From a virus (lineage: Duplodnaviria > Caudoviricetes), in IMG/VR virus record IMGVR_UViG_3300032030_000005, positions 128,001-192,000 of that record: DNA of 64,000 nt, one strand, 5' to 3'. How positions within the stretch are numbered: position 1 is the first letter of the stretch; the number at the start of each line of letters is the position of its first letter. Of this stretch, positions 13,985-41,592 are shown in pieces. The notes beneath the pieces are model-generated. The model saw only the letters and a program-made list of their open reading frames with translations. It had not been told where the DNA came from and made no database searches. A program made the translations under genes and the position numbers.

Positions 13985-14452
13985 ATGAATTATGAAGAAT
14001 TATTTTTAGAAGGTTATTATGATGCTTTAAATGAAATAGAAGAAGATTCTTATGATGAATATGAAGCTTATAATGAAGAAGATTTAGAAGAAGCATATCT
14101 TGAAGGTTATTATGCAGCTTTAAATGAAGCTAATAAATACGAACAATATATGGGTATGACTAAAGGTCAAAAGCAACAAGCAAGATATGATAGAAATAGA
14201 GCTGAAGATACAACAAAATATATAACCTTAAAAAATGGAAAAAAAGGTGCTATTGGAAGGGCTTCAAACTTTATGTATCATAATATGAACGGTAGAAAAG
14301 TTGGTTCAGATTATGGTTCAAATTCATACACTGTAATGCAAAAAGGATTTAATAACGCACCTGAAAATAGAGAAAAGAATATAAGTTCAGTTTCTTCTAG
14401 AAATTTAAGAAGAGGTAGTGCATCTAATAGTTGGCATAATATTGATAAATAA
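13985..14452 (+). CDS. Acidic-leader / basic-cargo protein A (candidate internal head protein)
   Basis: Acidic leader with two LEGYYxALNE units followed by a K/R/N/G-rich domain. Confidence 0.7.
   Translation: MNYEELFLEGYYDALNEIEEDSYDEYEAYNEEDLEEAYLEGYYAALNEANKYEQYMGMTKGQKQQARYDRNRAEDTTKYITLKNGKKGAIGRASNFMYHNMNGRKVGSDYGSNSYTVMQKGFNNAPENREKNISSVSSRNLRRGSASNSWHNIDK
13991..14128 (+). repeat. 138-bp perfect inverted repeat, arm 1
   Basis: Reverse complement of 14919-15056; both arms encode the same 46 aa. Confidence 0.9.
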
Positions 14453-14496
14453 AAATATATCCCTTAAGACTAATTAGTCTTAAGGGATATATTTTT
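14451..14496. terminator. Bidirectional CCCTTAAG hairpin terminator
   Basis: AAAAATATATCCCTTAAGACT-aatt-AGTCTTAAGGGATATATTTTT between convergent genes. Confidence 0.85.
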
Positions 14497-14501
14497 ATTT
14501 A

Positions 14502-15071
14502 TTAAAAATCTTTTTTCTTTAAACCATTTTTAGTTTGTACATATTTACCTTTATTGGTATAATATCTATGCTCAGTACCATCACTAGTGGTAAAAGTTGC
14601 TCTACTTGGCTGACCACCATAGTATTTAACTGATGAACCAAGCATATCATGCATTCCTGCAGAATTTGGATTAACTGATTTTCCATCTATTGTAGCACTA
14701 GTTATATATTTACCTTTAGTTGATGGATTTACACCTTTATTATGAATTAATCTTCCTTTAGTCAGTCCTCTATATGATTTACCTTTTTCTTTAGACATTT
14801 TTCCCGGATGCATAAGTGCTTCTATTTTTCTTCCTTCATGAACATTACCAGCTTTCATTTGTTTTCTCCATTCACGAGCTAAAACTTTATTATGTTCTTG
14901 TTTATTATACTGACTTGTTTCATTTAAAGCTGCATAATAACCTTCAAGATATGCTTCTTCTAAATCTTCTTCATTATAAGCTTCATATTCATCATAAGAA
15001 TCTTCTTCTATTTCATTTAAAGCATCATAATAACCTTCTAAAAATAATTCTTCATATGTCATTATAGACAC
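14502..15071 (-). CDS. Acidic-leader / basic-cargo protein B (candidate internal head protein)
   Basis: Same 46-aa leader as 13985..14452; unrelated Lys-rich C-terminal domain. Confidence 0.7.
   Translation of the reverse strand: MSIMTYEELFLEGYYDALNEIEEDSYDEYEAYNEEDLEEAYLEGYYAALNETSQYNKQEHNKVLAREWRKQMKAGNVHEGRKIEALMHPGKMSKEKGKSYRGLTKGRLIHNKGVNPSTKGKYITSATIDGKSVNPNSAGMHDMLGSSVKYYGGQPSRATFTTSDGTEHRYYTNKGKYVQTKNGLKKKDF
14919..15056 (-). repeat. 138-bp perfect inverted repeat, arm 2
   Basis: Reverse complement of 13991-14128. Confidence 0.9.
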
Positions 15072-15163
15072 ATCCTTTCTTTAAATTAATAATTTATAGT
15101 TTTATAATTCGTATCAAAATAAAATTATATATATATATTATAATTGTAGAAAGGAGGAATATT

Positions 15164-15277
15164 ATGATTAAAGATATTCTTAAGGTCTTGGTAAAGACCT
15201 ACTCAGTAGCGTTGGCTGTTACAGGTATAGCGCTTCTGATATTAAATGTCATATCCTCACAAAAAGAAAAAAACTAA
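15164..15277 (+). CDS. 37-aa single-TM micropeptide MIKDILKVLVKTYSVALAVTGIALLILNVISSQKEKN
   Basis: AAGGAGG RBS, early motif at 15132, hydrophobic core and charged tail; below the ORF-track cutoff. Confidence 0.7.
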   Translation: MIKDILKVLVKTYSVALAVTGIALLILNVISSQKEKN

Positions 15278-15312
15278 TAATCTGTTAATCACATGAAAGG
15301 AGGTGATATAGT

Positions 15313-15441
15313 ATGACAGATATTATATTAAACTTTTTTAAAGGTTTACTCTACGCACATGAAGTAGGGTTAGCTATTAGTGTTGCCTGTCTTGCATTGA
15401 TAGTGGTTTGCTGTAGACAGAATAACAAAGAAGATAAATAA
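15313..15441 (+). CDS. 42-aa single-TM micropeptide MTDIILNFFKGLLYAHEVGLAISVACLALIVVCCRQNNKEDK
   Basis: AAAGGAGGTGA RBS; followed by hairpin AATGATCGCT-gtga-AGCGATCATT. Confidence 0.7.
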   Translation: MTDIILNFFKGLLYAHEVGLAISVACLALIVVCCRQNNKEDK

Positions 15442-15489
15442 AAAATGATCGCTGTGAAGCGATCATTGTAAGAAAGAAGGTGATTAAAA

Positions 15490-15555
15490 ATGATTAAAAC
15501 AATTATTTTAAGATTTATTTCTGAAATTATTTACAGGTGTAACAACTTTAGATAA
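15490..15555 (+). CDS. 21-aa micropeptide MIKTIILRFISEIIYRCNNFR
   Basis: GAAGGTGA RBS at normal spacing. Confidence 0.45.
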   Translation: MIKTIILRFISEIIYRCNNFR

Positions 15556-15592
15556 TATAATTTCAGATAAGATTCAATAAGGAGGTGATAAA

Positions 15593-15682
15593 ATGTATGA
15601 GTACACAATTGTATTCTTAAAAGCAGTAACAACTGCGATTTATCTTATAGAGCTATTGGGGGTATGCTTTAAAGGTAAATAA
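15593..15682 (+). CDS. 29-aa hydrophobic micropeptide MYEYTIVFLKAVTTAIYLIELLGVCFKGK
   Basis: AAGGAGGTGA RBS; followed by a second GCT-GTGA-AGC hairpin and T tract. Confidence 0.65.
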   Translation: MYEYTIVFLKAVTTAIYLIELLGVCFKGK

Positions 15683-15718
15683 AAAAATAATGATTGCTGT
15701 GAAGCAAGCGTTATTTTT

Positions 15719-16471
15719 TTAGTTTACAACATCATAAAATACTTCAATGTAACTATTATTTAATTTTTTAATTTTAGTTAAATTAAGAATACCTATATCA
15801 CTTAATTTTTTAACATCACTTCCACCTATTAAAGAAGATGTATTTGTACCACCAACTAATATCGGACATATAACAATATTGACTTTGTCTATTAAATGGT
15901 TTCTTAAAAAGATATTATTTAAAGTTGAACCAGTTTGTATTGTAAGTTCTTTGCATCCATACTTATATAATTCTTCAAGCATATTTTTTGGATTAAATTT
16001 TCCATTATATTCTATAATAGTTAAATTATCTTCGTTAGATAAATATGCTGGATGATTTTTATTACTTGTTACTAAATAAAAATGATTGAATACACTACAT
16101 GTATAAGATACACCATGATCTGTTAAATGATTATTATCTATAATAACAAAATTAACTGGACATCTTTCTTTAGCAAATGGCTTTGAATTATAACCGACTT
16201 TTGCCATTACTCTACCACTATTTAAACTCCATAAATCCGTTTCTTGTTCTGCTTCATAGTATTGATGTAATCCTTGTGCTGGGTTACCTGATAATTTAGG
16301 AATATCTTTATCTACATCAAAATTATCAGTAGGACCTGTACTTATTTTTCCATCTAAGCTTTGTAAAAGAAATAATGTTGTAACAGGTCTATTTGACGGA
16401 TTCTGCTGTTCGTTTAATATTTCATACATATATGCATCGAAATAACCTTCTAAAAAAGCTTTATTTAACAT
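15719..16471 (-). CDS. RibD-C / dihydrofolate-reductase-family reductase with an added FLEGYFDA leader
   Basis: RPVTTLFLLQSLDGKIS, IQTGSTLNNIFLRNHLIDKV, PILVGG motifs. Confidence 0.8.
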   Translation of the reverse strand: MLNKAFLEGYFDAYMYEILNEQQNPSNRPVTTLFLLQSLDGKISTGPTDNFDVDKDIPKLSGNPAQGLHQYYEAEQETDLWSLNSGRVMAKVGYNSKPFAKERCPVNFVIIDNNHLTDHGVSYTCSVFNHFYLVTSNKNHPAYLSNEDNLTIIEYNGKFNPKNMLEELYKYGCKELTIQTGSTLNNIFLRNHLIDKVNIVICPILVGGTNTSSLIGGSDVKKLSDIGILNLTKIKKLNNSYIEVFYDVVN

Positions 16472-17217
16472 TATTTCTCCTCCCTCAGATCATTTATTCT
16501 ATCAACTAATTCATCATACTTTTTATCATATATTTTAATATAATGAACTTTCTTATTTTTTATATCATCCTGAACTGCTTCTTCTTTAAGTACTTCTAAC
16601 TGATAATCTCTATCACGATATCCATGACCACTTTGAGTACCTTTAACTTCAATAAGTAAATTAATATCGGCTAAGAAAATATCAGGAATATAAAAATGCT
16701 TCTTTCCTTCATAAGTATAATTATAAATCTGAGGAGCTGGTGCAAATACTTCACAGCTTGGATACTGCATAATCTTATCTAAATACTCTAATAAATCTTT
16801 TTCATATGTTCCTGTATATGTAAACTCTTTTCCATCAGACCATTTGTATTTTCCAGATATTTTTCTATGTTCCAGCATTTGTTTCTGTCTAACTGGATCC
16901 TGTAACTGCGTTAAAGGATCTTTACCTTTAGCCAACATTCTAGCTCTAAATTTAGCCACATAAGCTTCTTTACATTTAGGATTCTTACAAAGTCTATCAT
17001 ATTTTTCAGTTTTTTCATTAAAGAATGTTTCTTTGCCACATTCTGTACATTTCCCTTTATGTGTAGCATTATGATTTCTATAATCAAAATAATAATGTGC
17101 TGCAGATAATCCCAATAATTGATCTTTATGTATATTGTCCATATGATCATATAATGACTGTTTGGATACATATTTTTTATCACATAATGGACATTTAAAT
17201 GATTTAGTATTAATCAT
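16471..17217 (-). CDS. Zinc-finger plus PD-(D/E)XK (TnsA-like) nuclease-domain protein
   Basis: C2H2 CPLC..H...H, CTEC..C...C, and YIPDIF..LLIEVKG. Confidence 0.7.
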   Translation of the reverse strand: MINTKSFKCPLCDKKYVSKQSLYDHMDNIHKDQLLGLSAAHYYFDYRNHNATHKGKCTECGKETFFNEKTEKYDRLCKNPKCKEAYVAKFRARMLAKGKDPLTQLQDPVRQKQMLEHRKISGKYKWSDGKEFTYTGTYEKDLLEYLDKIMQYPSCEVFAPAPQIYNYTYEGKKHFYIPDIFLADINLLIEVKGTQSGHGYRDRDYQLEVLKEEAVQDDIKNKKVHYIKIYDKKYDELVDRINDLREEK

Positions 17218-17325
17218 AATAGTTATTCACTTCCGTTTCTATATTTTAATAATAAATCGTTTAATTAACTTTTTATTTATATATTATCTTTTTGTTTAAT
17301 ATATTTTATTAATGGAGGTATTTTT

Positions 17326-17730
17326 ATGAAATTAGTATTAACAAAAGAAGAATTTAGAAAACTCGAAGACTTTATACATAAAAGAGCTGAATTTGAAGTT
17401 TTCGAGAAATTAGGCCATCCATGCTCAAATAATTGTCCGGGCATGGAAATTTTAAAACACTTGGATGGCGAGAATGATGAATGTATATGTAAATTAATCA
17501 ATGATTGCCACACATATAAAGAATATTGTGAAAAATGTAAAAAATTATATGATATATCGGAAGAAAGCAAACAAAACGTAAATAATATTATTTCTATTGA
17601 AGAAATTGCAATATATGTAAGGAAGGTTATAAATATAGAAAAATCTAAATTAATCATTGATAAAATGGAAAAAGAAAAAACTGCCAATGAAGTTAAAATA
17701 GCAAATTCACATATTATAGAAATAGAATAA
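17326..17730 (+). CDS. Cys-rich hypothetical early protein
   Basis: GGAGG RBS, early motif 17278, hairpin terminator 17735-17779. Confidence 0.65.
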   Translation: MKLVLTKEEFRKLEDFIHKRAEFEVFEKLGHPCSNNCPGMEILKHLDGENDECICKLINDCHTYKEYCEKCKKLYDISEESKQNVNNIISIEEIAIYVRKVINIEKSKLIIDKMEKEKTANEVKIANSHIIEIE

Positions 17731-17777
17731 ATTTAAATGACCTTAAGGAAATATAATCCTTAAGGTCATTTTTTTTT

Positions 17778-17900
17778 TTAATCATGTAATATATTTGGTT
17801 TTGGAAGATCTTTTACCGCATGAATTCCATCACCTATTACAGTAGTTCCATCCGGTAATGATACTAATTCACCATATTCTGGTATTCTATCTTGATCCAT
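17778..17900 (-). CDS. 40-aa protein MDQDRIPEYGELVSLPDGTTVIGDGIHAVKDLPKPNILHD (tail-fibre N-terminal GE..IGDG..DLP motif)
   Basis: Purine-rich RBS; ends at the shared bidirectional terminator; motif typical of Mtd_N/hyaluronidase N-terminal modules. Confidence 0.6.
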   Translation of the reverse strand: MDQDRIPEYGELVSLPDGTTVIGDGIHAVKDLPKPNILHD

Positions 17901-17959
17901 AATTTATACACTTCTTTCTATAGCTGTAATAAACATAATTGTAAAATATATATTATAAT

Positions 17960-18178
17960 TATGAAATATGAGACTTCTATATCCCAGTATAATTAACCAC
18001 AAGGAGGTGATTATAGTGGACTGGGATATAGAATGTGTAGAATAATAAGATAAAAGAATCTTATTACTTACTAAAAAAAAAAAGAAAGGAGGTGGATCGC
18101 CGATGGGCGTTTGTTATATTTTACACCGTAAGGTGATCGAGATCGTGTTATTATTAACCATCCCTTTCTTTTTTTTTT
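17960..18178 (+). ncRNA. Candidate structured RNA or short-ORF mRNA
   Basis: Early motif 17947; 14-bp perfect stem TTCTATATCCCAGT/ACTGGGATATAGAA enclosing ACAAGGAGGT; second long stem A10GAAAGGAGGTGG/CCATCCCTTTCT10. Confidence 0.45.
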
Positions 18179-18222
18179 ATTTTCTCCTAACTATATAGAA
18201 TAGTTAGGAGAAAAATTTATTT

Positions 18223-18378
18223 TTAATAAGTCATACTATAAATAGCTTGTGAACATTCATTTTTAACAGTACGTCTTGTACCACCAGAAACCGTTAATAA
18301 ATAGTTCTTTGTATTAATAATTTCTTCAGCTTCTGCATTAGCTTCCTGAGTATAAACACCTCTTAAAGAAACAGTGTC
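18223..18378 (-). CDS. rpoC: Exon 2 of the second RNAP beta'-N subunit (DTVSLRGVYTQEANAEAEEII...SMTY*)
   Basis: Begins right after the intron omega-G and supplies the last Asp of DFDGD; 51 aa, missed by the ORF track. Confidence 0.9.
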   Translation of the reverse strand, partial: DTVSLRGVYTQEANAEAEEIINTKNYLLTVSGGTRRTVKNECSQAIYSMTY

Positions 18379-19718
18379 CTTGTGTGGACTATATTTTCAC
18401 TTACGTGCCTTCCGTTTGTGGGCTGTTGGATCACCCTTACTCTACTCCCTTCGTGTATGTATTTCAACTTACCTTATTCTCCATATAGAAGTTACATTTA
18501 TTATTTGGTTTCGATAGTCTCTGAACTCATATCCTATCATTATAGGATACTTCGCTGCATCGATTAAGCAAAAATTTAAGTCTTATAACCATACCTAAGT
18601 CTGTTAAACTTCGCCACTATATATATTACTACTATAGTTTGGTAACTTAAATCGTTTAGCTATTCCTGCAATTAGAAAGGTTTAATGACGGCCACACCGT
18701 TTCAAAAAGAATATTTCTTTAATATATCTTTAATAATATCTTCTAAATCATCATATTTTTTATATGATATTCTATATAAATCAATATTATTTTTATTTTT
18801 ACAATATTCATTTTTAATTTTATCTCTTATTTTTTGTTCTTGTAAGTCTTCTTGTGAGTATGGATTTCTTTCATGAAATTCTCCATCATATTCTATTAAA
18901 ATAATTTTTCCAGTATTACTTTCTATTTTAAAATCAAATTTTAAAGGTTGTTTATAAATACAGTCATTAAATATATAATTCTTTTTAAAAGGTATTTGTT
19001 CTTCTTTTAAAATATATGAAATTTTAGTTTCACCTTTAGATTGCCTACAATAAGGGCATCGATATCCTTGTTGAAAATCATTTGGTCTTACTAAATATTC
19101 TTTATTACAATTTTTATGTAATATTTTATGTTTAATTTTATTATTATTTTTATAATTTTCTAGCCATTTATATTCTATACCATCAATTGATTGATTTAAA
19201 AGATTTTCCAAATAATTTTCTTTTATTGCATATTTACCTCTATTTTTATTAGAACAATAAGGACATCTACTTTTTTTAGAATTTAAAAACATATTTGGAG
19301 AAACATTAAAAGTTTTATTACATATATTATGTTTAAGTAAACATTTATCTTTTGTATTTTTAAACCCAGAAATATAACTATACTCATTTTTTGTTTCTTT
19401 ATTCAATCTCTCTATAAATTCTGTTTCAGTAACTTTTTTAGTAGATTTATGAATAATATTTTTACAATTTTGACATCTAGATTTTCCTTCATTTAAAAAT
19501 CCTTTTAATTTACATTTATAAATATTTCCACAATTATGTTTTAAAGTTACTTCAGTTTTAATTCCTTCTGGAAAAATGTTTGTTAAACATTCATACTCAC
19601 CATTCTCAATATTTTTTACTCTATTTAATAATTCTTCGCTTGTATATTTCATAATAAACACCACCTAACTATAAATAATTTGTTAGATGGCGATTCCAAC
19701 ATTTCTTTTTAAATATTG
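18379..19718 (-). mobile_element. Group I intron in RNAP beta' with the homing endonuclease in the P1 loop
   Basis: 5' exon ends GACGGU; IGS GAAACGGUGU-G-GCCGUCA (18686-18703) pairs with both exons, with U-G at the splice site; P7 GACUAU/AUAGUC; terminal G. Confidence 0.9.
18702..19664 (-). CDS. Intron-encoded homing endonuclease (zinc-ribbon repeats plus Vsr/EDxHD-like domain)
   Basis: Repeated H..C...RCPYC units; C-terminal SKGE..FDFKI..IEYDGEFH..RD..KN.YC. Confidence 0.85.
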   Translation of the reverse strand: MVFIMKYTSEELLNRVKNIENGEYECLTNIFPEGIKTEVTLKHNCGNIYKCKLKGFLNEGKSRCQNCKNIIHKSTKKVTETEFIERLNKETKNEYSYISGFKNTKDKCLLKHNICNKTFNVSPNMFLNSKKSRCPYCSNKNRGKYAIKENYLENLLNQSIDGIEYKWLENYKNNNKIKHKILHKNCNKEYLVRPNDFQQGYRCPYCRQSKGETKISYILKEEQIPFKKNYIFNDCIYKQPLKFDFKIESNTGKIILIEYDGEFHERNPYSQEDLQEQKIRDKIKNEYCKNKNNIDLYRISYKKYDDLEDIIKDILKKYSF

Positions 19719-21080
19719 ACCGTCAAAATCCCCTCCCATAGCTTCAAGATAGAAGCTATTAACACGAACGGTATCTACAAAGAAATCATGATTACTATTT
19801 TTATTTTTATCAGGATAATCTTCTAATATTAAAGGATAATCTTCAAAATAATCATTTCCTAATGTCATTGTACATGTTTTCTGTGTTGATAATATCTTAA
19901 TTCTACTAGGATATATATTCTGGAAGTTAGCGATTGGATAACGAGTTACATATACATGTTTAGTTTTTACTACTTCACTAGCTACTATAAATAATAAATC
20001 TGTAATAGTGAAATTTCTATGTAATTCTTCTTGATATAAACCGAGATAATGAATAATTCCTTGGTCATCTTTGAAAGGAACTCTATCAAATCTAGATTCA
20101 TGGTTTTTAATATATGAATTACATAATTTTTTTATATGATCCTCATCAAAATTATCCATAAAATGATTAATTGTACAATTAAAGTTTTTTTCTACATCAT
20201 ATTTAAAATCATCTAATTTTCTTTCAAACCATGCTTGCATTTCATATATTATAAATGGTAAGAATAATACAATTACCTGTGATAAAGGGACACCAGTTTC
20301 TCTAAAGTTTACTTGTGTCTTCTTCCATGTAGGAGCTGTTACCATAGGACAAGAAATAACAGATCTTGTAGAATAGTCTATAGATTTACCTAATAAAGCT
20401 CTATGTATAAGACCTGTTTTCTTAGCTAACTGAGATGTGCAATAATCATATATTTGAACTAATAAATCCTGAATTAAAGAGTCATTTGTGTATGATAAGA
20501 AATTAAAGCTAAAATCATCAGTTGACTGACAATATCTAATAACCTTAGAATACATATCATTTATAGCGTCTACAGAATCAACTCTATCATTATTTTCAGT
20601 AGGCTGAAAGTCCCTAATAAACGGTGGTATTACTAAGAACTTATTAACGAATAAAATATCTTTAGGGGTCTTATTAAGTACTAATATTTTTTCATCTCTG
20701 GTAAATGAATCTGAACTCTTGAATCTAAACTTCTCCCAGTTATCATATAAGAATGATATACCTGTTTGTCCATTTTCATCTTCAATGATTTCACCTTTAC
20801 TATTAACAGAAAAATACTTAGTACCGTTTATGCAACCAGCTAATTTACGATTCATACTAATAAGAATCTTATATGTTAATGGATGTAAAAATCTTTTCTT
20901 TAAATCTATATAACCGAATATTTGTTTTCTATCTTCCGAACCCATTTGTCCAAATAATTCTATAGATAATAAGCCATCAGATGTTGGCTTATTACCAAAA
21001 TTAAAAAGTATAGCATTGGTAACTTCAGGACATTTATTTCTTTTAATGAATTCGTCCATATTTGTTAAATTAATATTCAT
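19719..21080 (-). CDS. rpoC: Exon 1 of the second RNAP beta'-N subunit (likely virion RNAP); spliced product about 505 aa
   Basis: DGLLSIELFG, FGYIDL, GKSIDYSTRSVI, VTRYPI, MGGDFDG|; downstream of a late-type motif (22021). Confidence 0.9.
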
Positions 21081-21087
21081 ATAGATA

Positions 21088-21993
21088 TCACCTACCTATT
21101 TTTTCAAGAATATTATTTTTATCTGGTACAGCGTATCTGTTTAATTCTATAAATTTATTAATATCAATAGGATCATCTTTACCTGCTAAAATATCATTTA
21201 ATTTATAATAATCTTCTTCATATTTAAATTTATACTTCTTTACAAACTGTGCATAATCATTATAAGAAATTAAATTAGAATAATCTCCTTCTAATCTTGA
21301 AACATAGTTTCTATAAAATTTTTTAATATCCTGATCTGTTAATTTATAAATAAGAACGCCAGCACCTACTAATGTAGCACCAGTTGCTATTGGACCATAT
21401 TTAGGGCCTAAAGCATCTTTAATACCATTAGCAACTATTAATGAACCACCAAGCATTAACCCTTTAGAAGCTATATCTGCAAAATCTTCATTATAAGTAG
21501 TATTTAAAGGATGTTCACATAAAGGCTTTCTAGGTTTTCTCCAATTAGAAATACAACCTTTATTTTCATTCGTACATTTAACACCCTTATCAATCTTTTT
21601 ACCATTCTGATCTAAGATGGTAAAGTTATAATCTTCAGGATTATCACTACCGATAGAATCTGTATCAGCTGTTGATTTTAATCCCATATGATTACGATAT
21701 ATAGCATCAAAATCTACATCGCTTCTGTGATTTTTATTTACATTATTGTTATTAGTAAATATCTTCTTATTATATGTGTTTCTAACATCATCATCGTCTT
21801 TTTTATTATTTATTACAGATGCCGTCATTTTGTTATTATAATTATTATTGCTATCATTATAATCAGATACTCTCTTATTCTGATAATTTGCATTTTGAGT
21901 ATTATTTGTTAAATGACCATGCTTAGAACCTAAGATGATTTGCTTATTTTCTATGCCTTCCGGGAAGTCATCATATATCTTCTTATCTGCCAT
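21088..21993 (-). CDS. Hypothetical protein with an Asn-rich N-terminus and a Gly-rich hydrophobic hairpin
   Basis: GLMLGGSLIVANG..IATGATLVGAGVLIY; late motif 22021. Confidence 0.6.
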   Translation of the reverse strand: MADKKIYDDFPEGIENKQIILGSKHGHLTNNTQNANYQNKRVSDYNDSNNNYNNKMTASVINNKKDDDDVRNTYNKKIFTNNNNVNKNHRSDVDFDAIYRNHMGLKSTADTDSIGSDNPEDYNFTILDQNGKKIDKGVKCTNENKGCISNWRKPRKPLCEHPLNTTYNEDFADIASKGLMLGGSLIVANGIKDALGPKYGPIATGATLVGAGVLIYKLTDQDIKKFYRNYVSRLEGDYSNLISYNDYAQFVKKYKFKYEEDYYKLNDILAGKDDPIDINKFIELNRYAVPDKNNILEKIGR

Positions 21994-22058
21994 ATTTAAT
22001 CATTCCTTTCTTAAAAAATATAAATGTTTGTTGAAGGATAAGATTTTTTAATAAAATG

Positions 22059-22318
22059 AAAAAAAAAATATCCACCCTGCAGTGTGGATATTTAAAAACT
22101 CTCACTCTGCAGCGTGAGAGTTTTTACTTCTTCGGGATCATATAAAGCTCCTTTTCTACTCTCATCGTGGATCCCTACTTCATACACTTTGAGAATAAGG
22201 TTTTTCTTTTTACCAGGATTCGATATTTTATCGAACACAGAAAAACTCTCTAAAGACCTGGACAGTGCTAACTATTGAAGAATAACACACGCACTGTCTA
22301 ATATGTATTATTCTTCAC
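22059..22318 (-). ncRNA. Candidate ~260-nt structured ncRNA (5' H-type pseudoknot, two internal domains, twin CUGCAG-loop hairpins)
   Basis: Early motif 22323-22332; several complementary stems whose G-U pairs work only on the minus strand; ends in hairpin plus U tract; no substantial ORF. Confidence 0.65.
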
Positions 22319-22356
22319 GATTATAATATATATTTAATATTATAGTTTATTACGGT

Positions 22357-22977: not shown

Positions 22978-22985
22978 ATGATCAC

Positions 22986-23823: not shown

Positions 23824-23886
23824 GATATACTCCTTTATAATATATAAATAAAACCCTTAAGAGACTTTATATCTCTTAATATATAT

Positions 23887-24834: not shown

Positions 24835-24847
24835 TCCTTTGTTAAAA

Positions 24848-24881: not shown

Positions 24882-24886
24882 ATTTA

Positions 24887-31354: not shown

Positions 31355-31359
31355 ACATT

Positions 31360-31980: not shown

Positions 31981-32068
31981 AATTTAACTTCCTTTCTGTT
32001 TTAAGTTAATATAAAGAAATAGCTAAATTATAATATATAAATATTTTCAATTAGAAATTTTAATAAAA

Positions 32069-32098
32069 ATCCCTTAAGACTCTTTGGTCTTAAGGGAT
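32069..32098. terminator. CCCTTAAG hairpin terminator
   Basis: ATCCCTTAAGAC-tctttg-GTCTTAAGGGAT. Confidence 0.8.
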
Positions 32099-32104
32099 AT
32101 ATTA

Positions 32105-32683
32105 TTACTTCTTTAATGTCTCTTCAAGTTCTTTCTTAGCAGCTTCAAGCTCTTCAGCCTTATCACCTTTAATATCCTTAGAACTTTCTTCAAGGATTGA
32201 ATTCTGTTCTTCAAGATACTGTTTAAGAAATTCATTCTTATCTACTTTAGTCATAGCATCATAAATACCAGACTGCTTTTCAAAATTCTTAAAATTAGCA
32301 ACAGCCTTAGTAAGAGCTTCCTTCTTGTCTTCTGGAATAGGAAGAATCTTACCATCTGGACTATTCTTGTCTACTAAGAGAAATGCTAAATTACCAAATA
32401 CAGGTGTTCCAAAGAATCCTAAATTATATTTGATATCTGGATCGAACTGATCATAGTTCATAAACATTGTAAAATCATCAAAAGGGCTTGGAAGAAAACC
32501 TGCATTATTAATCTTTCCCGGCTCTTGATCTTTTGTATGTTCCGTAACTAAATCAATAATCTTGATGAAAGCTTCATTCATACCTTCCTTATCAGAAGTA
32601 TATGAAAAATCTTCAAAGATTACATTATCTTCACCCGGCTTTACTATGCCAATAAAACCAGTATAAGTTGTAACTAAATCCAT
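32105..32683 (-). CDS. Hypothetical protein
   Basis: AAGGAG RBS; late motif 32712. Confidence 0.65.
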   Translation of the reverse strand: MDLVTTYTGFIGIVKPGEDNVIFEDFSYTSDKEGMNEAFIKIIDLVTEHTKDQEPGKINNAGFLPSPFDDFTMFMNYDQFDPDIKYNLGFFGTPVFGNLAFLLVDKNSPDGKILPIPEDKKEALTKAVANFKNFEKQSGIYDAMTKVDKNEFLKQYLEEQNSILEESSKDIKGDKAEELEAAKKELEETLKK

Positions 32684-32746
32684 AATCTTACTCCTTTATT
32701 AAATTATTTAATATTATATAGTTAATAAAAAATTTTATTTTTTAAT

Positions 32747-34153
32747 TTATAATTCTTTATTTAAATTAAAAATATTTTTTATATTTCTCTTTTTAGATTC
32801 CATATGAGTTCTACCAAAATATTCTTCTCTTTCATCTATAAGTTTTTGCATTTCTATAAGAGCTGGATCTATAGGATTATTAACTATATTATTCATTACT
32901 TCTTCTTTATTATAACTAGCAAATCGTTTAAACTGTTGTTCTTGTTTATTAACTTCTTTTCTATTAAATTCATTAATAGGATTATCAGATATATTTTTAA
33001 AAAATTTATTTCTATTATTGCTATAAATCAATACATATAAGCCAATAAGATAACTCATAGTTAAGTCATCATGTTCACCACTCATATGATTAATCTTACC
33101 AGACTTTTCTCTTATTAATTTCTTAAGTTCATCAAAGAGTTCGTTATTGTTAATAAGTTCGGGTCTAGTATTAGCAATCATAAATAATATTTCTTCAGTC
33201 ATTACTTTTCTTGTAGTAGTATCTGTCTGGAAACCATACTTACGAGTTTCAATAGTACTTTTATTAGATTTATTCGTATTAAAGATAGAAGTCTTCTTAA
33301 TTTTCTTTTGTGTATAATCTTTATCTTCTGAAGATGTATAATAAAGATTCTTAGAAATATCAGACTTTTGAATATGTTCAATAAACGCTGAGTTAAAGTT
33401 ACGTTCAGGAATAATTACTGCATTAGGTACATATTTTTGTACAAATTCAATAACTAAATCTGCAAACTCTAATACACCAATATTATTATTCTTAAACTTC
33501 ATTACTTGTTTATAACTCATAGGATCTATTAATGAAAATGCTGAATAGTCTCGACCAAGACCACCACCAATATCTATTGATAAACACCAGTTCTTATACA
33601 TAAGATTGTTAAATGGTTCTAATACATCAATCTTATAATTATTAATATATATTGTTTGTTCATTTTCACGTTTAATATATTTGGACATTGCATCAAGTTG
33701 TTCTTCGGTAAAAATAGACATATTAGAAGCATATGTCCATTCAATAAGAATTTCTCTCTTAACCTTAGACATATCTCCTTCAAGAGCTTTGATTTGAGCT
33801 TTAAGCCATTTTTCATCTTTACCTAATTCATCATAATGATATTCTATATAAATATAATTATTGCCTGAATTCTTTTCTAAATAATCTTCTAATTCTTCAT
33901 CAGATTTATCATAAAAACTAAAATCAAATTTAGCAGCTTTTGTTATCATATCATGACAGAATTTACCTTCTGGTACATCTAAATTGTTAGGAGTAGTCGA
34001 GATTGTGATCCCATATGGTTGTTTTGCCTTTTTTGCTGCATCACTAGCTTTTGTAAGGGCCGGTCTAGCCGACATATACATGACTTTATTCATGTTCAAA
34101 AATGCAAATTCGTCACACCAAAGTATAGGAATATTAAGGCCTCGTCCTAACTT
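32747..34153 (-). CDS. terL: Terminase large subunit, exon 2 (Walker B plus RNase H-like nuclease domain)
   Basis: KLGRGLNIPILWCDEFAF, ISTTPN, SIDIGGGLGRDYS, IPERN, HDDLTMSY; in frame 54 nt upstream of the ORF-track start. Confidence 0.9.
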   Translation of the reverse strand, partial: KLGRGLNIPILWCDEFAFLNMNKVMYMSARPALTKASDAAKKAKQPYGITISTTPNNLDVPEGKFCHDMITKAAKFDFSFYDKSDEELEDYLEKNSGNNYIYIEYHYDELGKDEKWLKAQIKALEGDMSKVKREILIEWTYASNMSIFTEEQLDAMSKYIKRENEQTIYINNYKIDVLEPFNNLMYKNWCLSIDIGGGLGRDYSAFSLIDPMSYKQVMKFKNNNIGVLEFADLVIEFVQKYVPNAVIIPERNFNSAFIEHIQKSDISKNLYYTSSEDKDYTQKKIKKTSIFNTNKSNKSTIETRKYGFQTDTTTRKVMTEEILFMIANTRPELINNNELFDELKKLIREKSGKINHMSGEHDDLTMSYLIGLYVLIYSNNRNKFFKNISDNPINEFNRKEVNKQEQQFKRFASYNKEEVMNNIVNNPIDPALIEMQKLIDEREEYFGRTHMESKKRNIKNIFNLNKEL

Positions 34154-35670
34154 CTAATAAGTCTTAATATTTTATTTTATGTATTTATTCAGTATAACTT
34201 CGATGTTATTAAACTCTTTATATGATATTCTTAATAAGTCATGACCATATTTCTTACAATATTCATTTTTAAGATTATCTCTATATTGATATTCTTTTAG
34301 ATCACCATAATAACTTTCTTCAAAATGTTGAATACCATCAAATTCTATTAACAATAATGAGCCATCTGGATATTCCAATTTAAAATCAAATTTTAATGGA
34401 TGATTTTTAGATTTATGATAAAGATCTTTAAATATAAAATTACGTTTAAACTCAATATTGCGATCGGTTAACCATTTGGCTATACGCTCTTCACCTATAT
34501 AATTATTCTTACAATAAGGACATCTTTGTCCGGCTAAGAAATGATGAGGTGTCATATCAAATGTTCTATTACATTTTTTATGCTTAAATGTAAGCTTAGT
34601 CTCAGTATTTTTATATTCATTTAATACTGTATATGTATCTTTAACTAAATCATTAACTTTTGTTAAGAATTCTTCATTTGTCATAGTTTGTTTCTTTTTA
34701 GAACATACAGGACATCTATATCCTAATAAAAAATTAGATGGTGTTACATCATAAATAGTATTACAAGTATTATGTTTAATTTTAACTTTGGTGGAATTAT
34801 TAATATATTCAGACATTAACTCATATTCATTGTTGGTCAATTGATTTATTTCATATTTAAATATATCTGTATTTCTTTTATTATTTTTAGAACAATATGG
34901 ACATTTATTTTTCTTTTTCAAGAAACCTTGAGGAGTAATTTCAAATGTATTATTACATTTTAAATGTTTGATTTTAACTTTAGTAAAATTATTAATATAT
35001 TCATCTAATACTAAATATTCATTTCCACATTTTTCTTGAAATTCTTTAGTTGTTAATTTTCTATATTTATTACAATATGGACATTTTTTATATCCATTTA
35101 ATATATTAGCTACAATTCCTTCAAAAGTATTATTGCATGTTTTATGTTTAAAAGTTAATACAGATTTATTATTTGTATATTGGCCTGATATAACTATAAA
35201 TTCACCATTATTAAAATTTTCAAATTGTTTTTTAACTTCTTCAAATGTTTTTCGTTTACGGCTATAATGATTTGAATTCATATTAATTACCTCGCATATC
35301 GTTTAATATCCGGTTGTTAACATGAATATTTAAATAAAAAGTGGACTATATCTTCAGACGTATATGGTTAATACGTACTGCTCTCCATTTGGGTGATGTT
35401 TATATAACACCATATAGAAATTATTAAGTTCTATTCCTACTCTACTCCCTTCTTCAATTCTATATAGAATTTATGGTTTCGATAGTCTCTGAACGTTCTT
35501 CTATAATAAGTATAGAAGCTTCGCTGCTGATTGTCTAAGCTTCTTAATTTTTAAGCATTCAAGCTCATCTTTACAGATCACTTTGTAGCTTAAGAAGTAT
35601 AAAGAGTTTCCAGCAATTAGAAGAGTTTATTATAGTGCGAACAAGTTAGGATAGTTTCTGAAAGCTTTTT
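34154..35670 (-). mobile_element. Group I intron in terL with the homing endonuclease 3' of the catalytic core (P9 region)
   Basis: P1: exon AGUGCGGAU pairs GUUCGCACU with U-G; P10: CCUAACUU pairs exon-2 AAGUUAGG; P7 GACUAU/AUAGUC; omega-G at 34154; core similar to the RNAP intron. Confidence 0.92.
34172..35281 (-). CDS. Intron-encoded homing endonuclease (four zinc-ribbon repeats plus Vsr/EDxHD-like)
   Basis: KHKTC..CPYC repeats; FDFKL..IEFDGIQH; own late-type motif at 35307-35318. Confidence 0.85.
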   Translation of the reverse strand: MNSNHYSRKRKTFEEVKKQFENFNNGEFIVISGQYTNNKSVLTFKHKTCNNTFEGIVANILNGYKKCPYCNKYRKLTTKEFQEKCGNEYLVLDEYINNFTKVKIKHLKCNNTFEITPQGFLKKKNKCPYCSKNNKRNTDIFKYEINQLTNNEYELMSEYINNSTKVKIKHNTCNTIYDVTPSNFLLGYRCPVCSKKKQTMTNEEFLTKVNDLVKDTYTVLNEYKNTETKLTFKHKKCNRTFDMTPHHFLAGQRCPYCKNNYIGEERIAKWLTDRNIEFKRNFIFKDLYHKSKNHPLKFDFKLEYPDGSLLLIEFDGIQHFEESYYGDLKEYQYRDNLKNEYCKKYGHDLLRISYKEFNNIEVILNKYIK

Positions 35671-36267
35671 ATCCGCACTTTTTTCATCTTTAGGTGATGA
35701 TAATGATTTTACAGTATTATTTCTTTCAGCAATACGAAGCATATTTATATTATCTGTATCGTATTTAGGATTCATATGAGCTTTTAAATAAGCCGGTAAT
35801 ACTTCAATTACGTCCATAAGACGTTTAAGATTTTCTTGGCTATCCTGAAGCTGTTTATTACTAAATATCATAGTATAGTTTTCAGCTTGGAATAAATATA
35901 CCCAAGAATACCAACATATATTAGACCAAGTTTTATAGTGCTGACGAGGCAAACATATAATAACGTCTCTATTTTTTAACTGAACGAAATGTAATGCCAT
36001 ATTGCCTAAATGTAATTCATAAGGTACGGCACCACCAGTAGAATTAATCTTTATTACTTCTCTGATATAATACCAGAAATTAAGCTTAACTTCTTTAAGA
36101 ATCCGGCCTTGCATCTCTAAAGATAAATTATGACTATTAGGATCTATACCTTGTAATTTAGAATCATATAATTGTAACATAAAATTCCAATTCTTTACGC
36201 CTTTATCTTTAAGCTGTTTAGCCATTTTAATAAAACTTAAATTTGATGTATTGTAATCATAAATCAT
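35671..36267 (-). CDS. terL: Terminase large subunit, exon 1 (Walker A); spliced product about 667 aa
   Basis: NFWYYIREV, LPRQHYKT Walker A; AAGGAG RBS before ATG 36267; ends ...KSAD| and joins KLGRG. Confidence 0.9.
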
Positions 36268-36394
36268 ATAATTTCTCCTTTCTTTCAATATTTATAATCA
36301 TATAGTTATAAACCGAAATAAAATATAAATGTATTTATATATTATTATTGTAATGAAAGAAACCACAACTACTATATTAAAGGAGGTAATAAGT

Positions 36395-36778
36395 ATGACA
36401 AATACTTATGAAACAATTAAGAATCTTATCGCTAGGTGTTCAAAGCCTAGCGAGCTGGATAGGATAATGGAAGAATATATCGATGACGAAATTCAGGAAC
36501 GTCTTATCGATGAATTTGAAGAAGAATACAAGAAGTTTATAGCAACAGATATAAAGGATTTGCCTGAGATTCGAGTTGATGGCCGTAGGATTCTCGATCC
36601 AGGTAATTACCGCATCTTTGCATTTAAAAACTCCCTTGTCCTGAAAGTGGAGTATGTGGTAAGAGGTTATATGGAAAACAACAAGGTAACATTTACACCA
36701 AGTAAGAACAAGTACTATAAGAGCTATCACGTATGCCTCAAGAACTCAGTTCGGTACAAGTTCAATATTGGTTACTAG
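36395..36778 (+). CDS. Hypothetical early protein
   Basis: AAGGAGGT RBS before MTNTYE; early motif 36336; hairpin terminator about 36793-36830. Confidence 0.65.
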   Translation: MTNTYETIKNLIARCSKPSELDRIMEEYIDDEIQERLIDEFEEEYKKFIATDIKDLPEIRVDGRRILDPGNYRIFAFKNSLVLKVEYVVRGYMENNKVTFTPSKNKYYKSYHVCLKNSVRYKFNIGY

Positions 36779-36894
36779 GTGAAAGGAAGTGATAAAAAAA
36801 AAATAATGGTTATGAACCATTATTTTTTTTATTTATATATTATAATAGTGTAAAAAAATTAATATTTTTGTCTAAAGACAAGGGGGAATTAAAA

Positions 36895-37269
36895 ATGGCA
36901 AAAGATTTTTTAAAGATCATTGATGAAGAACTTTTTACGCCAACTGAAATTGATGAATTCGTAACTGAACTTACAAGTGAAGAGTATGAATTATTAATTG
37001 CAATTGCTAAAACATGTGTTGTTCTTATTGACAAGGATGTCTTATATAAAAGACGTTCACATTGTGAAGAGTTCTGTCATGATCTTACATTGAAAATGGA
37101 TTATGTTCTTAAGTCCAGACCATACTATGAAGGAGGAACAGAAGTGTATACGACTGGTATAAAAGGAGGATATAATCCAGAACACAGATGCAACTATGAT
37201 TTAGATGCTTTACCATCTAATACTGATGTTGCTTTTGAATCAGAAAACTTTGAATGGAGGAAATATTAA
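36895..37269 (+). CDS. Hypothetical early protein
   Basis: AAGGGGGA RBS before MAKDFL; early motif 36834. Confidence 0.6.
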   Translation: MAKDFLKIIDEELFTPTEIDEFVTELTSEEYELLIAIAKTCVVLIDKDVLYKRRSHCEEFCHDLTLKMDYVLKSRPYYEGGTEVYTTGIKGGYNPEHRCNYDLDALPSNTDVAFESENFEWRKY

Positions 37270-38018
37270 TGTATAGTACAAATCAGATTTTTAAAAAAAT
37301 TCATAGTCGTATCAATGATATAAAGGATATTACTGTTGAAACTGAATATGAAACAAATAAAAGGCTGTTTATCCGTCCAGGATTTACACCTCTTAGACTT
37401 GGATACGTAGGTGTAGGTGATATATCCTATAGTACAAGTGCATATGTATTTGATTCACTGTTTTATGATGAAACAGGTTTCAAATATGAAGAAAATAAAC
37501 AAAGATTTTTTGAAGGAAAAGCTGCTTATAAATATTGTGATGGCAGAACACTAGCACTTATTGAAAATCTACTTGATATAGTTATCGGTAGATGCGATCC
37601 TTTAGATCTAGACGCATATAAAGATCATTTATATAATAAAGATATAGAATATATAATCTTCAATCTTTCAGATAGTACTTGCATAGATGAGACAATACGC
37701 TCAAATTGTATTTTCTCAATAATTGGTCATGATTATAATCAAATGATTAAAGAAGAATACTATTTTGAAATATCTGTTGATCATTACTATGATGTAATAG
37801 TTGATAAATATTATGATGATAAGCCTTTGTCATTAGTCAAATTATACAAAATCAATAATATTACAAAATATCGTAATATAGATGAATTTGAAGAAAGATT
37901 AAACGATATAGATCCTAATATAGCTAGACTCGTACATAAAGATTATTCATATTTAGCGGAGGAAAGTATAAAACATCTTTTCAACGAAGAAGAAATTGAA
38001 ATTGATTGGAGAGATTAA
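37254..38018 (+). CDS. Hypothetical protein (paralogue trio, member 1)
   Basis: Coupled ORF; true start probably 37269. Confidence 0.6.
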   Translation: MEEILMYSTNQIFKKIHSRINDIKDITVETEYETNKRLFIRPGFTPLRLGYVGVGDISYSTSAYVFDSLFYDETGFKYEENKQRFFEGKAAYKYCDGRTLALIENLLDIVIGRCDPLDLDAYKDHLYNKDIEYIIFNLSDSTCIDETIRSNCIFSIIGHDYNQMIKEEYYFEISVDHYYDVIVDKYYDDKPLSLVKLYKINNITKYRNIDEFEERLNDIDPNIARLVHKDYSYLAEESIKHLFNEEEIEIDWRD

Positions 38019-38721
38019 TATGACTGATAATACTCTTACAGAAAAAATATTTAAAGAAAACTACCAAGAGGAAGCTCTTGGTAGTTATATTAGATACGGA
38101 TATGCACCTTTAAATTATTATAAAGGTAGATTTGTAATAAATGGTGTAGAAACTGAATTAGTAATAACACCTGATAATTCAGCTAATATCCATGAGATAT
38201 TATCATTTTTCAGTTGTGGACATGATATAATATCAGATAGTAGTTGTATATCATTATTACAGATGTTAAAAAGATTACCAAAATATAGTAATTTAGAAAA
38301 TAAAGATATTATAAATCTATCAAAAGTGGGTAATTACTTATCTTTTTATATGCATAAATATGTACCTTGTTCATTTATATCATATGATGAAGAAGAAGAC
38401 TTTATCAATATAGATTCATATATTGGCATAATTGTAGCCGATGGTATTAAGAAAAAATGTTATCAACATTGTTTATCTGTAAATTTTAAAATTTATGCAG
38501 ATCATATTGGATTTTATAGTAATCCAATGTTATTTTTCCACACTGATAGACAATGTTATATTTATGATGATGATGTTGATACATTTTATAATACTGTTAA
38601 ACGTGAAATTATTAGTCATCATAATATAGCACAACATGACATATCACAGTTAGACGCATTTAAAAATATGTATTTACAGACAGTAATAGGCCAATTAGAA
38701 AGGAATCTAGATAATGGTTAA
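37996..38721 (+). CDS. Hypothetical protein (paralogue trio, member 2)
   Basis: Coupled ORF; true start probably 38020 (GGAG RBS). Confidence 0.6.
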   Translation: MKLIGEINMTDNTLTEKIFKENYQEEALGSYIRYGYAPLNYYKGRFVINGVETELVITPDNSANIHEILSFFSCGHDIISDSSCISLLQMLKRLPKYSNLENKDIINLSKVGNYLSFYMHKYVPCSFISYDEEEDFINIDSYIGIIVADGIKKKCYQHCLSVNFKIYADHIGFYSNPMLFFHTDRQCYIYDDDVDTFYNTVKREIISHHNIAQHDISQLDAFKNMYLQTVIGQLERNLDNG

Positions 38722-39427
38722 TACAAAAACGTTATTTGATATGGAATATAAATATCGTAATGATAGTATACGAACACCACGTAACTATTATAATACATAT
38801 GATAATTTGAATGTTAAAGATGGTTATAATTTATTAACTACTTTTCATTATGCATTTACAACAGTATACAAAAGAAATGCTATATTTTCTAATGATAGTT
38901 CAGATCATGCTATTCACTTTTATGATCGTTTCTTAAATTTATTCTTTGATTATAATTTCCGCAAAAAATTACACCCTGAGTTATTTAAAAAAACTTATTC
39001 AGCAACAGTTCCAACAATTCTAAGCGAATTTACCAATGATCAAGAATATTTTAGAATAAGAAAAGATAATGCTAGTTATATTAAATATTATATAGAATCT
39101 AATCCTGGGTTTAGTAGTGATGAATTTGTAGATGAAAAATATGATATTGTCTATATAAAATCAAATATAGCAGTTATATATTTTAACACAGATGATGTAA
39201 TAATAGCTGAAAAATATTTGCATGTATATTTTTCATATTACAATGATTTAATTATATCTAATAATGATATAAAACCAATAATGTTTTATAACGTACACAA
39301 TATAAAGGAAATCCAAGGGTTTGATGATTATATAGCAACATTATCTGAAAAGGATGAAAATGTTATTAATAGTTTAAAACGAGAATATAGAGAAATAGTT
39401 GTCGATAGTTTAGAATCTAATATTTAA
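38714..39427 (+). CDS. Hypothetical protein (paralogue trio, member 3)
   Basis: Coupled ORF followed by terminator 39435-39470. Confidence 0.6.
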   Translation: MVNTKTLFDMEYKYRNDSIRTPRNYYNTYDNLNVKDGYNLLTTFHYAFTTVYKRNAIFSNDSSDHAIHFYDRFLNLFFDYNFRKKLHPELFKKTYSATVPTILSEFTNDQEYFRIRKDNASYIKYYIESNPGFSSDEFVDEKYDIVYIKSNIAVIYFNTDDVIIAEKYLHVYFSYYNDLIISNNDIKPIMFYNVHNIKEIQGFDDYIATLSEKDENVINSLKREYREIVVDSLESNI

Positions 39428-39514
39428 TTTATATAAAGATAAATCCATATAGGATTTATCTTTTTTTTTTATAAAAACTATTCTTTATAGTTTAAAAATA
39501 GAGAGGTGAAAATT

Positions 39515-40678
39515 GTGTCTACATTTTTTAATGATGAAATATATCCTATGATTAGTTCAAATGATAGTCAATCTATTGCTAAACAATTTGAAGCTTATGT
39601 GCAAAAATATATGGATAAAAATTCAGAAGTATTATTCCATAATATTCCTAGTAAACGATTATTCTTTACACCTAATGATATAAAGTATCCATTTGATTTA
39701 TATCATATTAATGTAAGTGATATTGATAATACGGTTAATAAGATTAAGAAGACTAAGGAATGTTATGGTGTTATTAACCAAGTTAACTTCCCATTAAACT
39801 TTTTAATGGTTAATATTATAAGATATTATCATTTAAAGAACAATCAGGCTGCTATGCAAGCTGCATTAATGTATTTGACACTATATCAATATGCTGCTTT
39901 ACATGCTAAGTATTTCCAGAAATTCTTACCTAATGAAGATTGTATGCAGTTTACATTTAATAGAGTATCTGATAAATATTACTTTAGAAAATATCAATCA
40001 GTATTCAAAGCTATATTTGCCACTGTTATTAATGCTCATGAAACACAAAAGAAATCACTAGAATCTAAAAATGATATGGATATATTAAGTTATCTTCTTG
40101 CTATAAGAACAAGACTTAATAACCAGATGAAAGCTTTTGTTAATGAGTATATGAATGACTTTAATAGTAAGAAATATCTTAAATTACAACAAGATAGTAA
40201 TGATGAAGAAAATTATTATGAAACATCAAATCAATCAGCTGAAATGGTTAATATAGTTAATAAAGCTTTTAATAAGTTTAATACACAGAAACTTGATCCG
40301 GTAATATTAAGAACTGCTTGCGGTATATGTAAAGCAGAACAGAGTGTAATGAAATTAGCACTTGAGAATATTAAAGATAATGAATTAGAATCTATTAGAA
40401 TTTTATTATTATCAATCGTTCAGTTATACATCTATAATGAAAATAATAATATAAATGAAATCGGATCACAGAAATTTGTTACTTATATGATAAGTTCATA
40501 TAGTAAGTCTAATAGTAGAAATGATATTAGCTTAAGTATCAAGGAGACTTTAGATAAATTCTTAACTAAGTACTGTAATAGATATTCTAATACAGAAAGA
40601 GAAGCCACTAAGGTTATATATAGGAAAGCTTGCTATATTTACTTTATATTACTTATTAATAAATCTTATAATGAATAA
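39515..40678 (+). CDS. Hypothetical late protein, possibly virion
   Basis: GAGGTG RBS before GTG 39515; late motif 39476. Confidence 0.6.
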   Translation: MSTFFNDEIYPMISSNDSQSIAKQFEAYVQKYMDKNSEVLFHNIPSKRLFFTPNDIKYPFDLYHINVSDIDNTVNKIKKTKECYGVINQVNFPLNFLMVNIIRYYHLKNNQAAMQAALMYLTLYQYAALHAKYFQKFLPNEDCMQFTFNRVSDKYYFRKYQSVFKAIFATVINAHETQKKSLESKNDMDILSYLLAIRTRLNNQMKAFVNEYMNDFNSKKYLKLQQDSNDEENYYETSNQSAEMVNIVNKAFNKFNTQKLDPVILRTACGICKAEQSVMKLALENIKDNELESIRILLLSIVQLYIYNENNNINEIGSQKFVTYMISSYSKSNSRNDISLSIKETLDKFLTKYCNRYSNTEREATKVIYRKACYIYFILLINKSYNE

Positions 40679-40686
40679 GAAAGGAA

Positions 40687-40968
40687 ATGATGAAGATGAA
40701 CAGATATGATGAAATATTTATGGAAGGCTATTATGATGGATTAGCTGCTATTGAAGAAACACCTAAGTGTGATTGCAATCTTAGTAAGAAAGCTAAAATT
40801 AAAGCTAGAGCTACTAGACAGCAAGCAGAAGCTAATGATAGATATTTACAATTAAAGTCTGGAAGAACTGCTAATATTAGAAAGAGATTTGATTATGATA
40901 AGTTTAATCATAACTTCAATCCTAGATCTACAACAGAATATAATTTAAATGAAGAAGAAGATATTTAA
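40687..40968 (+). CDS. Small protein with the YDEIFMEGYYDG leader and a basic cargo
   Basis: N-terminus matches the leader of 13985/15071/16471; cotranscribed with a late gene. Confidence 0.65.
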   Translation: MMKMNRYDEIFMEGYYDGLAAIEETPKCDCNLSKKAKIKARATRQQAEANDRYLQLKSGRTANIRKRFDYDKFNHNFNPRSTTEYNLNEEEDI

Positions 40969-41577: not shown

Positions 41578-41592
41578 TGAAGTATAACTCCT

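Follow-up and report, generated by a model that had tools for sequence, protein, structure and literature searches.

Four genes in one stretch of a giant-phage genome begin with the same acidic motif and continue into different proteins, which raises the question of what such a motif does. The stretch (64,000 nt, hereafter the window) comprises bases 128001-192000 of the 305,865-bp IMG/VR virus record IMGVR_UViG_3300032030_000005. The record is rated complete by CheckV, has a G + C content (GC) of 27% and is distantly related, judging by DNA and protein matches, to the uracil-DNA jumbo phages AR9/PBS1, Staphylococcus phage S6 and Listeria phage LPJP1. An initial annotation had proposed that the motif is a shuffleable N-terminal tag that addresses four unrelated cargoes to the phage head. 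We find that the motif is portable and present in more genes than the four, and we believe, with a probability of about 0.5, that it serves a narrow AR9-related jumbo-phage lineage as a docking and propeptide module in head assembly.

A check of the open reading frames (ORFs) confirmed that the four genes exist and that the motif stands at the start of each. Lengths are in amino acids (aa), and pI is the isoelectric point.

13985..14452, plus strand: 155-aa gene; acidic double tag at residues 1-48 (two motif copies, pI 4.1), then a basic orphan domain (pI 10.2)
14502..15071, minus strand: 186/189-aa gene; the same double tag, then another basic domain, unlike the first (pI 10.1); start probably at ATG 15062, which has a Shine-Dalgarno sequence
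15719..16471, minus strand: RibD_C gene, 250 aa; single tag at residues 1-21 ending in I-L-N-E, a short linker, then a complete RibD_C (pyrimidine-reductase-like) domain at residues 29-250
40687..40968, plus strand: 90-93-aa gene; single tag ending in I-E-E, then a basic domain; likely start at 40696, with a Shine-Dalgarno sequence

The genes quoted as 15071 and 16471 lie on the minus strand, these coordinates being their 5′ ends. The leaders have a pI of ∼4.1, the RibD_C part 6.3 and the three small cargoes 9.5-10.2, in agreement with their description as strongly basic. An abrupt switch after L-N-E or I-E-E was also confirmed: an alignment of the double leaders (A2) is invariant through the second motif and then collapses, and in the RibD_C gene the switch is evident because the RibD_C family begins 24 residues into the protein. 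At the DNA level the leaders of the convergent gene pair 13985/15062 form the two arms of an inverted repeat, and the cargoes behind them differ.

13985..14139, plus strand: left arm of the inverted repeat, 155 nt, 95% identical to the right arm; the leader of the 13985 gene
14908..15062, minus strand: right arm; the leader of the 15062 gene

To call the three basic domains unrelated was an overstatement, since the 13985 and 40687 cargoes are homologous (31% identity over 51 residues, E 4e-6). The 14502-15071 cargo gave no significant match to either of them. None of the three small cargoes matched Pfam, PHROG or NCBIfam, and the ESM Atlas returned no usable matches for the 155- and 189-aa proteins.

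The count of four genes was too low. A profile built from the copies detected 17 significant copies in 12 ORFs across the whole genome. The motif is an acidic amphipathic helix of ∼17 residues with the core hydrophobic-hydrophobic-E-G-Y-Y-D-A-L-x-E; its hydrophobic face is centred on a small G...A pair and its opposite face is rich in E/D. Using a degenerate DNA pattern for E-G-Y-[YF]-[DA]-[AG], we obtained 12 matches in the genome and 0 with a reversed-pattern control, which together with the profile matches shows that the motif is not due to chance. The third codon positions vary among copies (GGT/GGA/GGC/GGG, GAA/GAG, TAT/TAC). Since this variation is synonymous, selection acts on the peptide and not on the DNA. 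A literature search for the motif string found nothing.

The motif is also not confined to the N-terminus, so that the term N-terminal leader is too narrow. It lies at residue 2-3 in 7 of the 12 genes, and of the eight genes beyond the first four, three have it solely at internal or C-terminal sites. Internal copies follow a Cys-rich segment, a 133-residue module or a Gly-zipper segment, each with a Met just before the motif, and further copies are found at the extreme C-terminus. In a family of 57 tagged proteins, copies are N-terminal, C-terminal, present at both ends (13 proteins) or placed between modules, with up to four or five per protein, and the cargo modules recur in different combinations. 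The tags are stereotyped, with a length of 17-50 residues, and 90 of 108 copies run on into [LIM]-x-E, the conserved junctions being L-N-E, I-N-E, I-E-E and L-E-E. For a protein tagged at both ends (P0153, alignment A5), AlphaFold2 (AF2) predicted both copies to be helical, in a low-confidence model with a predicted local distance difference test score (pLDDT) of 56 and a predicted template-modelling score (pTM) of 0.20. A complex prediction for two 54-residue double leaders (A2) scored 0.01; no controls were run, and we do not count it either way.

A complete 265-kb sister phage (G001) carries 14 copies in 12 ORFs. In the syntenic Gly-zipper genes next to the prohead protease, the motif is C-terminal in G001 and N-terminal in the present genome. 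Scans of IMG/VR found the motif only in low-GC contigs (23-30%); matches in contigs of 36-44% GC were rejected as unrelated proteins. When the double-leader profile was compared with 1.84 billion representative proteins, all but one of the 39 hits fell within the tagged family, and a word-seeded search for longer proteins (332-2000 aa) with the double leader found none.

Portability of the tag is confirmed by its addition to an otherwise ordinary enzyme, as well as by its place beside shuffled cargo modules. The RibD-C/DHFR-family assignment was correct: the 15719-16471 product matches Pfam PF01872 (E 1.5e-17; 64.5 bits against a cut-off of 24.1; residues 32-233). It is a full-length family member that keeps all 67 invariant columns of a 15-sequence alignment (A3), with PDB relatives 6p8c, 2azn and 2b3z, and it scores below the NCBIfam cut-offs for RibD/RibG riboflavin reductase equivalogs (62 versus 150 for TIGR00227, 41 versus 186 for TIGR01508). 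More than 1,100 RibD_C homologues, typically of 226 aa, align with it from residue 25-28 onward, and those at 52-73% identity begin at the family's own N-terminus. Consequently, the first 24 residues, tag and linker together, are a lineage-specific addition. AF2 places the tag in a helix (residues 4-23) followed by coil, outside the Rossmann-like fold.

16409..16471, minus strand: 21-residue tag on the RibD_C enzyme, absent from 14 of 14 aligned homologues

No RibD_C orthologue was found in G001, S6, AR9, LPJP1 or BpSp. The closest homologues (66-73% identity) come from three independent contigs of a sister lineage, where an S77 prohead protease is encoded two genes upstream of them. These homologues lack the tag and have instead a conserved acidic C-terminal tail ending in [DE]-Y-N-x-L-[LF]. 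The enzyme has therefore been tagged twice independently with different terminal peptides, once inside a head-morphogenesis cluster. On two of the three contigs the RibD_C homologue adjoins an acidic protein with a C-terminus like its tail, and on one this protein also has similar internal repeats; this likeness may reflect a second, lineage-specific tag system. Acidic proteins near the protease (L041:13419-14297 and L094:5351-6307) end in S-Y-N-W-L-F or S-F-S-W-L-F and contain internal repeats of the E-Y-N-D-L-M type. The acidic 292-aa protein of the sister lineage has no homologue in the present genome and no meaningful Pfam match, and a ferritin/Dps-like domain considered for it was therefore discarded as unsupported. 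On all three contigs the closest RibD_C homologues adjoin a homologue of a gene that stands in the window just ahead of 40687.

39506..40678, plus strand: conserved AR9-like protein, 390 aa, heading the operon that contains 40687

Homologues of this protein thus belong to the protease cluster of the sister contigs, and its homologue in phiR1-37 (g205) is annotated as a structural protein.

The present phage encodes a protease that could process the tags. An S77 protease of the T4 gp21 family is found at genome position 235025 (Pfam E 2.4e-9; PHROG head maturation protease, E 7e-20), its gene interrupted by an intron. The AR9 protease gene is also annotated as joined from two pieces, and in S6 and BpSp protease matches occur in two separate places. 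The four genes directly downstream of the protease have acidic-hydrophobic N-termini, basic regions and Gly/Ala-zipper segments, and two of the four carry the motif. Genes for acidic or Gly-zipper neighbours lie at genome 236351-239626 and 291893-293257. A protein of the same build, preceded by a strong late-type site and bearing a degenerate tag, is encoded directly upstream of the capsid gene and is a candidate scaffold or core protein.

L001:7481-7849 (genome 235481-235849): group I intron in the prohead protease gene (Rfam RF00028, 75 bits, E 1.3e-18); exons at L001:7025 to ∼7480 and ∼7850 to 8225
L092:2111-3475 (genome 291893-293257), minus strand: 454-aa basic K/E-rich protein whose N-terminus bears a degenerate tag; the next gene downstream is the capsid gene
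L092:184-1983 (genome 289966-291765), minus strand: capsid gene

Just ahead of their conserved core, the capsid proteins of this phage, AR9 and LPJP1 share I-(L/M)-x-E-S without variation, a plausible maturation site of the tag-junction type. The genes that separate the protease from the capsid gene in AR9 and LPJP1 encode similar acidic-hydrophobic N-termini together with a transmembrane (TM) helix, and one of them in AR9 (g115) is annotated as a virion protein. A separate observation concerns the capsid propeptide region, where this phage shares an invariant Y...L-x-E-G-[FL]-[DE]-A with AR9 and LPJP1, and with a conserved I-(L/M)-x-E-S ∼25 residues later. It is faintly like the tag core and gives no score with the tag profile.

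The late consensus of AR9 is AACA-N6-TA/G (PMC5312081). A variant, AAC[AT]-N5-TTAT, occurs 75 times in the present genome, 41 of them 12-80 nt upstream of gene starts. On both strands of the window there are 13 such sites versus 27.7 in shuffled sequences, and most of the 13 lie just upstream of gene starts. This depletion away from gene starts fits a functional promoter element.

13938..13950, plus strand: late-type promoter-like site AAC[AT]-N5-TTAT, 47 nt upstream of 13985
15089..15101, minus strand: late-type promoter-like site, 39 nt upstream of the 15062 start
39476..39488, plus strand: late-type promoter-like site, 30 nt upstream of the 39506-40968 operon
16471..17217, minus strand: zinc-finger endonuclease gene (PHROG 15137, E 1e-58), directly upstream of the RibD_C gene and overlapping its start

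All four genes had been placed downstream of a late-type motif. Strict sites were found for 13985, 15062 and the 39506-40968 operon, whereas for the RibD_C gene the only site is a relaxed one, 79 nt ahead of the endonuclease gene that precedes it. Homologues of this endonuclease are annotated in AR9-like phages, and the gene is probably a mobile insertion that is co-transcribed with the RibD_C gene.

We compared the motif with known systems for filling a head. The capsid-targeting sequence (CTS) of T4, carried by the internal proteins IPI-III and by Alt, is a 10-residue N-terminal peptide (PMC8442874). Targeting depends on residues 4 and 7, an aromatic residue and a hydrophobic one three positions on, whereas processing depends on residues 8 and 10; the cleavage site of gp21 is L/I-X-E, and Alt is trimmed of propeptides at both its N- and C-terminus (PMC9026906). 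Six genes of the present genome start with M-x-Y-(E/D)-(E/D)-h-h-x-E, where h is hydrophobic, and a seventh has one extra residue (M-N-R-Y-D-E-I-F-M-E). Such N-terminal copies, for example M-x-Y-E-E-L-F-L-E, have the same Y-x-E-h-h-x-E spacing as the CTS. Both systems place a short acidic-hydrophobic peptide on otherwise dissimilar, mostly basic proteins, which in T4 are internal to the head. In both the tag closes in L/I-x-E and a gp21-family (S77) protease is encoded by the phage; Alt provides a precedent for propeptides at both termini. Changing the closing Glu to Asp in T4 stops processing and leaves targeting intact. In contrast to the CTS, the core here is longer (E-G-Y-Y-D-A-L) and often duplicated, and the phage, known from metagenome sequence, is an AR9-like jumbo phage. 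On the simplest account, a docking and propeptide module for head-internal proteins, the motif is related to the CTS in its logic, and perhaps also in origin.

The head and ejection proteins of phiKZ, 201phi2-1 and SPN3US have acidic propeptides and multiple cuts after Glu, with some TM-bearing mature fragments (PMC5694885). The cleavage motif is S/A-x-E in phiKZ-type phages and A-x-E in SPN3US (PMC5694885, PMC9026906). Acidic propeptides, cut sites after Glu and TM-bearing fragments, in giant phages with many internal head proteins, would be features that these phages and ours have in common. Unlike the short, stereotyped tags described here, their propeptides are mostly >100 residues long and protein-specific, with no shared portable motif. 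The phiKZ-type S/A-x-E rule does not fit the junctions found. A third parallel lies outside phages. Encapsulin cargo-loading peptides are short, terminal and common to unrelated enzymes, and they address the interior of an HK97-fold shell. The present motif likewise occurs at either end of diverse cargo; its sequence differs, and encapsulin systems are non-phage, with peptides that remain uncleaved.

We favour the docking and propeptide module because the portability of the motif, the protease, the gene neighbourhoods, the late sites and the basic or TM-bearing cargo all fit it. Late proteins with one or more copies would bind a common partner in the assembling prohead core. This partner could be a core protein or one resembling a scaffold, or else the capsid protein, bound at its inner face or its propeptide. 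In addition, the charge of the basic, often Gly/Ala-zipper cargo would be offset by the acidic tag. The S77 protease would then cut after the L/I/M-x-E that closes almost every copy, setting the mature cargo free within the head, presumably to bind DNA or to be ejected. A module able to work from either end and between modules could be moved by recombination, and such an event may have made a cellular RibD_C reductase a candidate head cargo. The head-address proposal of the initial annotation thus agrees with the portable motif, the late-type genes, the gp21-family protease with tagged neighbours and the L/I-x-E ends, and fails in its N-terminal-only placement and in its claim that all cargoes are unrelated.

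Such a tag bears on how giant phages select the dozens of proteins packed in their heads. A short, stereotyped tag that acts at either end would be an experimental handle and could serve to load proteins into large capsids, and the independently tagged RibD_C suggests a metabolic enzyme as virion cargo, which would be unusual if true. We can go further only tentatively. It is possible, with the balance of evidence still short of it, that the motif is a position-independent, multi-copy cargo-loading helix, acting much as an encapsulin peptide does but clipped by the protease, that RibD_C was captured for virion delivery and that the sister lineage uses a different C-terminal tag. As a further part of this, the tag on the sister-lineage RibD_C might copy the tail of that lineage's own acidic scaffold-like protein, a suggestion that we regard as equally tentative. 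If the reading were true, it would amount to an address code, defined and swappable, with which arbitrary proteins could be packaged into the heads of giant phages.

Several observations weigh against the docking and propeptide module. The exclusive N-terminal location of the CTS does not hold here, and there is one module family into which the motif is built as the first helix, at times in degenerate form, and is not a detachable tag. Only a minority of the tagged genes adjoin head genes, and of the four in the window only one does. The L-x-E pattern is weak and frequent in E/L-rich sequence. No copy was found in the five cultured AR9-like phages S6, AR9, LPJP1, BpSp and Internexus by the A1 profile, a search that may lack sensitivity, or by the DNA-pattern search, which had a positive control. 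Since AR9, S6, LPJP1, BpSp and PBS1-type phages lack the motif, their virion data are not transferable. The 189-aa protein, the N-P-F-P module (P0135) and module A (P0158) had no tblastn match in 50,697 phage records, and we infer docking, cleavage, packaging and ejection for a lineage known only from metagenomes.

The internal and C-terminal copies, together with the module family in which the helix is integral, leave room for an alternative in which the motif is never cleaved. It would be a permanent helix-helix element that links basic Gly-zipper proteins and a few passengers into an inner-body-like core mass, with no address role. Small-xxx-small spacing is typical of tight helix packing, and the G...A pair on the hydrophobic face has it. 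Copies at both ends, in tandem and between modules would give the multivalency that suits a network. We nevertheless consider such a zipper unlikely, given that nearly every copy closes in a protease-type L/I-x-E and that the RibD_C tag is set off from the fold by a linker and predicted by AF2 to be a free helix.

Tagged proteins that never enter the virion are quite unlikely. Small and made late, they would act in the membrane to control lysis, exclude superinfecting phages or remodel the envelope, and the acidic helix would be a cytoplasmic segment for regulation or oligomerisation. In keeping with this, 20 of the 57 family members have a Gly/Ala-rich hydrophobic run of at least 14 residues, several members are small and basic and resemble holin/antiholin-type proteins, and tiny TM-peptide genes lie between the tagged genes of the window. 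It does not account for the RibD_C enzyme or for the soluble basic cargoes, none of which has a hydrophobic segment. Nor does it explain why both complete genomes have tagged genes clustered next to the prohead protease, why a degenerate copy precedes the capsid gene, or why the sister-lineage RibD_C lies in the protease cluster. Very unlikely, in our view, is that the family consists of fast-evolving paralogues in which the motif is a remnant of one ancestral protein, with no address role and an accidental RibD_C fusion. The homologous 13985 and 40687 cargoes, the modules that several members share and the narrow lineage speak for it. The motif is, however, carried by an unrelated cellular enzyme, it switches terminus between syntenic genes of two related phages, and the order of the modules around it changes through recombination. 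Both of these explanations are made less likely by the evidence from RibD_C and by the way tagged genes cluster at the protease. Finally, a DNA-level recombination or regulatory element that is translated incidentally, as an identical 17-nt core in many copies and the 95% inverted repeat of two window leaders might suggest, was rejected as extremely improbable: the copies differ mainly at synonymous third positions with conservation tracking the amino-acid pattern, every copy is in frame within a long ORF, whichever strand it is on, and an identical core is expected from the AT-rich codon usage of the genome.

Several further features of the window were recorded. Two tiny plus-strand genes, 15164-15277 (37 aa) and 15313-15441 (42 aa), each with a strong Shine-Dalgarno sequence and a single hydrophobic helix, lie between tagged genes and are followed by similar terminator-like hairpins (repeat D4). 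Members of PHROG 12252, to which no function is assigned and which have conserved H-H-x-P-F and H-E-L-x-H, are found at 13137-13895 in the window (minus strand), at L001:1911-2546 (minus strand) and at L041:16253-17020 (plus strand); in the present genome as in the sister lineage, these paralogues or orthologues recur beside genes that are tagged or belong to a head cluster. Paralogues of 147-209 aa form tandem arrays at 41011-43576 in the window (minus strand) and at L001:12115-14440 (plus strand). Most of these proteins end in ...(K/N)-N-L-E, a tail that constitutes a second recurrent terminal module. The window also contains virion and RNA polymerase genes, a 3577-aa giant protein and a terminase gene into which a homing endonuclease is inserted.

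35617-36288 and 32747-34099 (span 32747-36288), minus strand: large terminase in pieces, with an HNH/homing endonuclease gene at 34172-35281 between them

This split terminase resembles the intron-split terminase of AR9.

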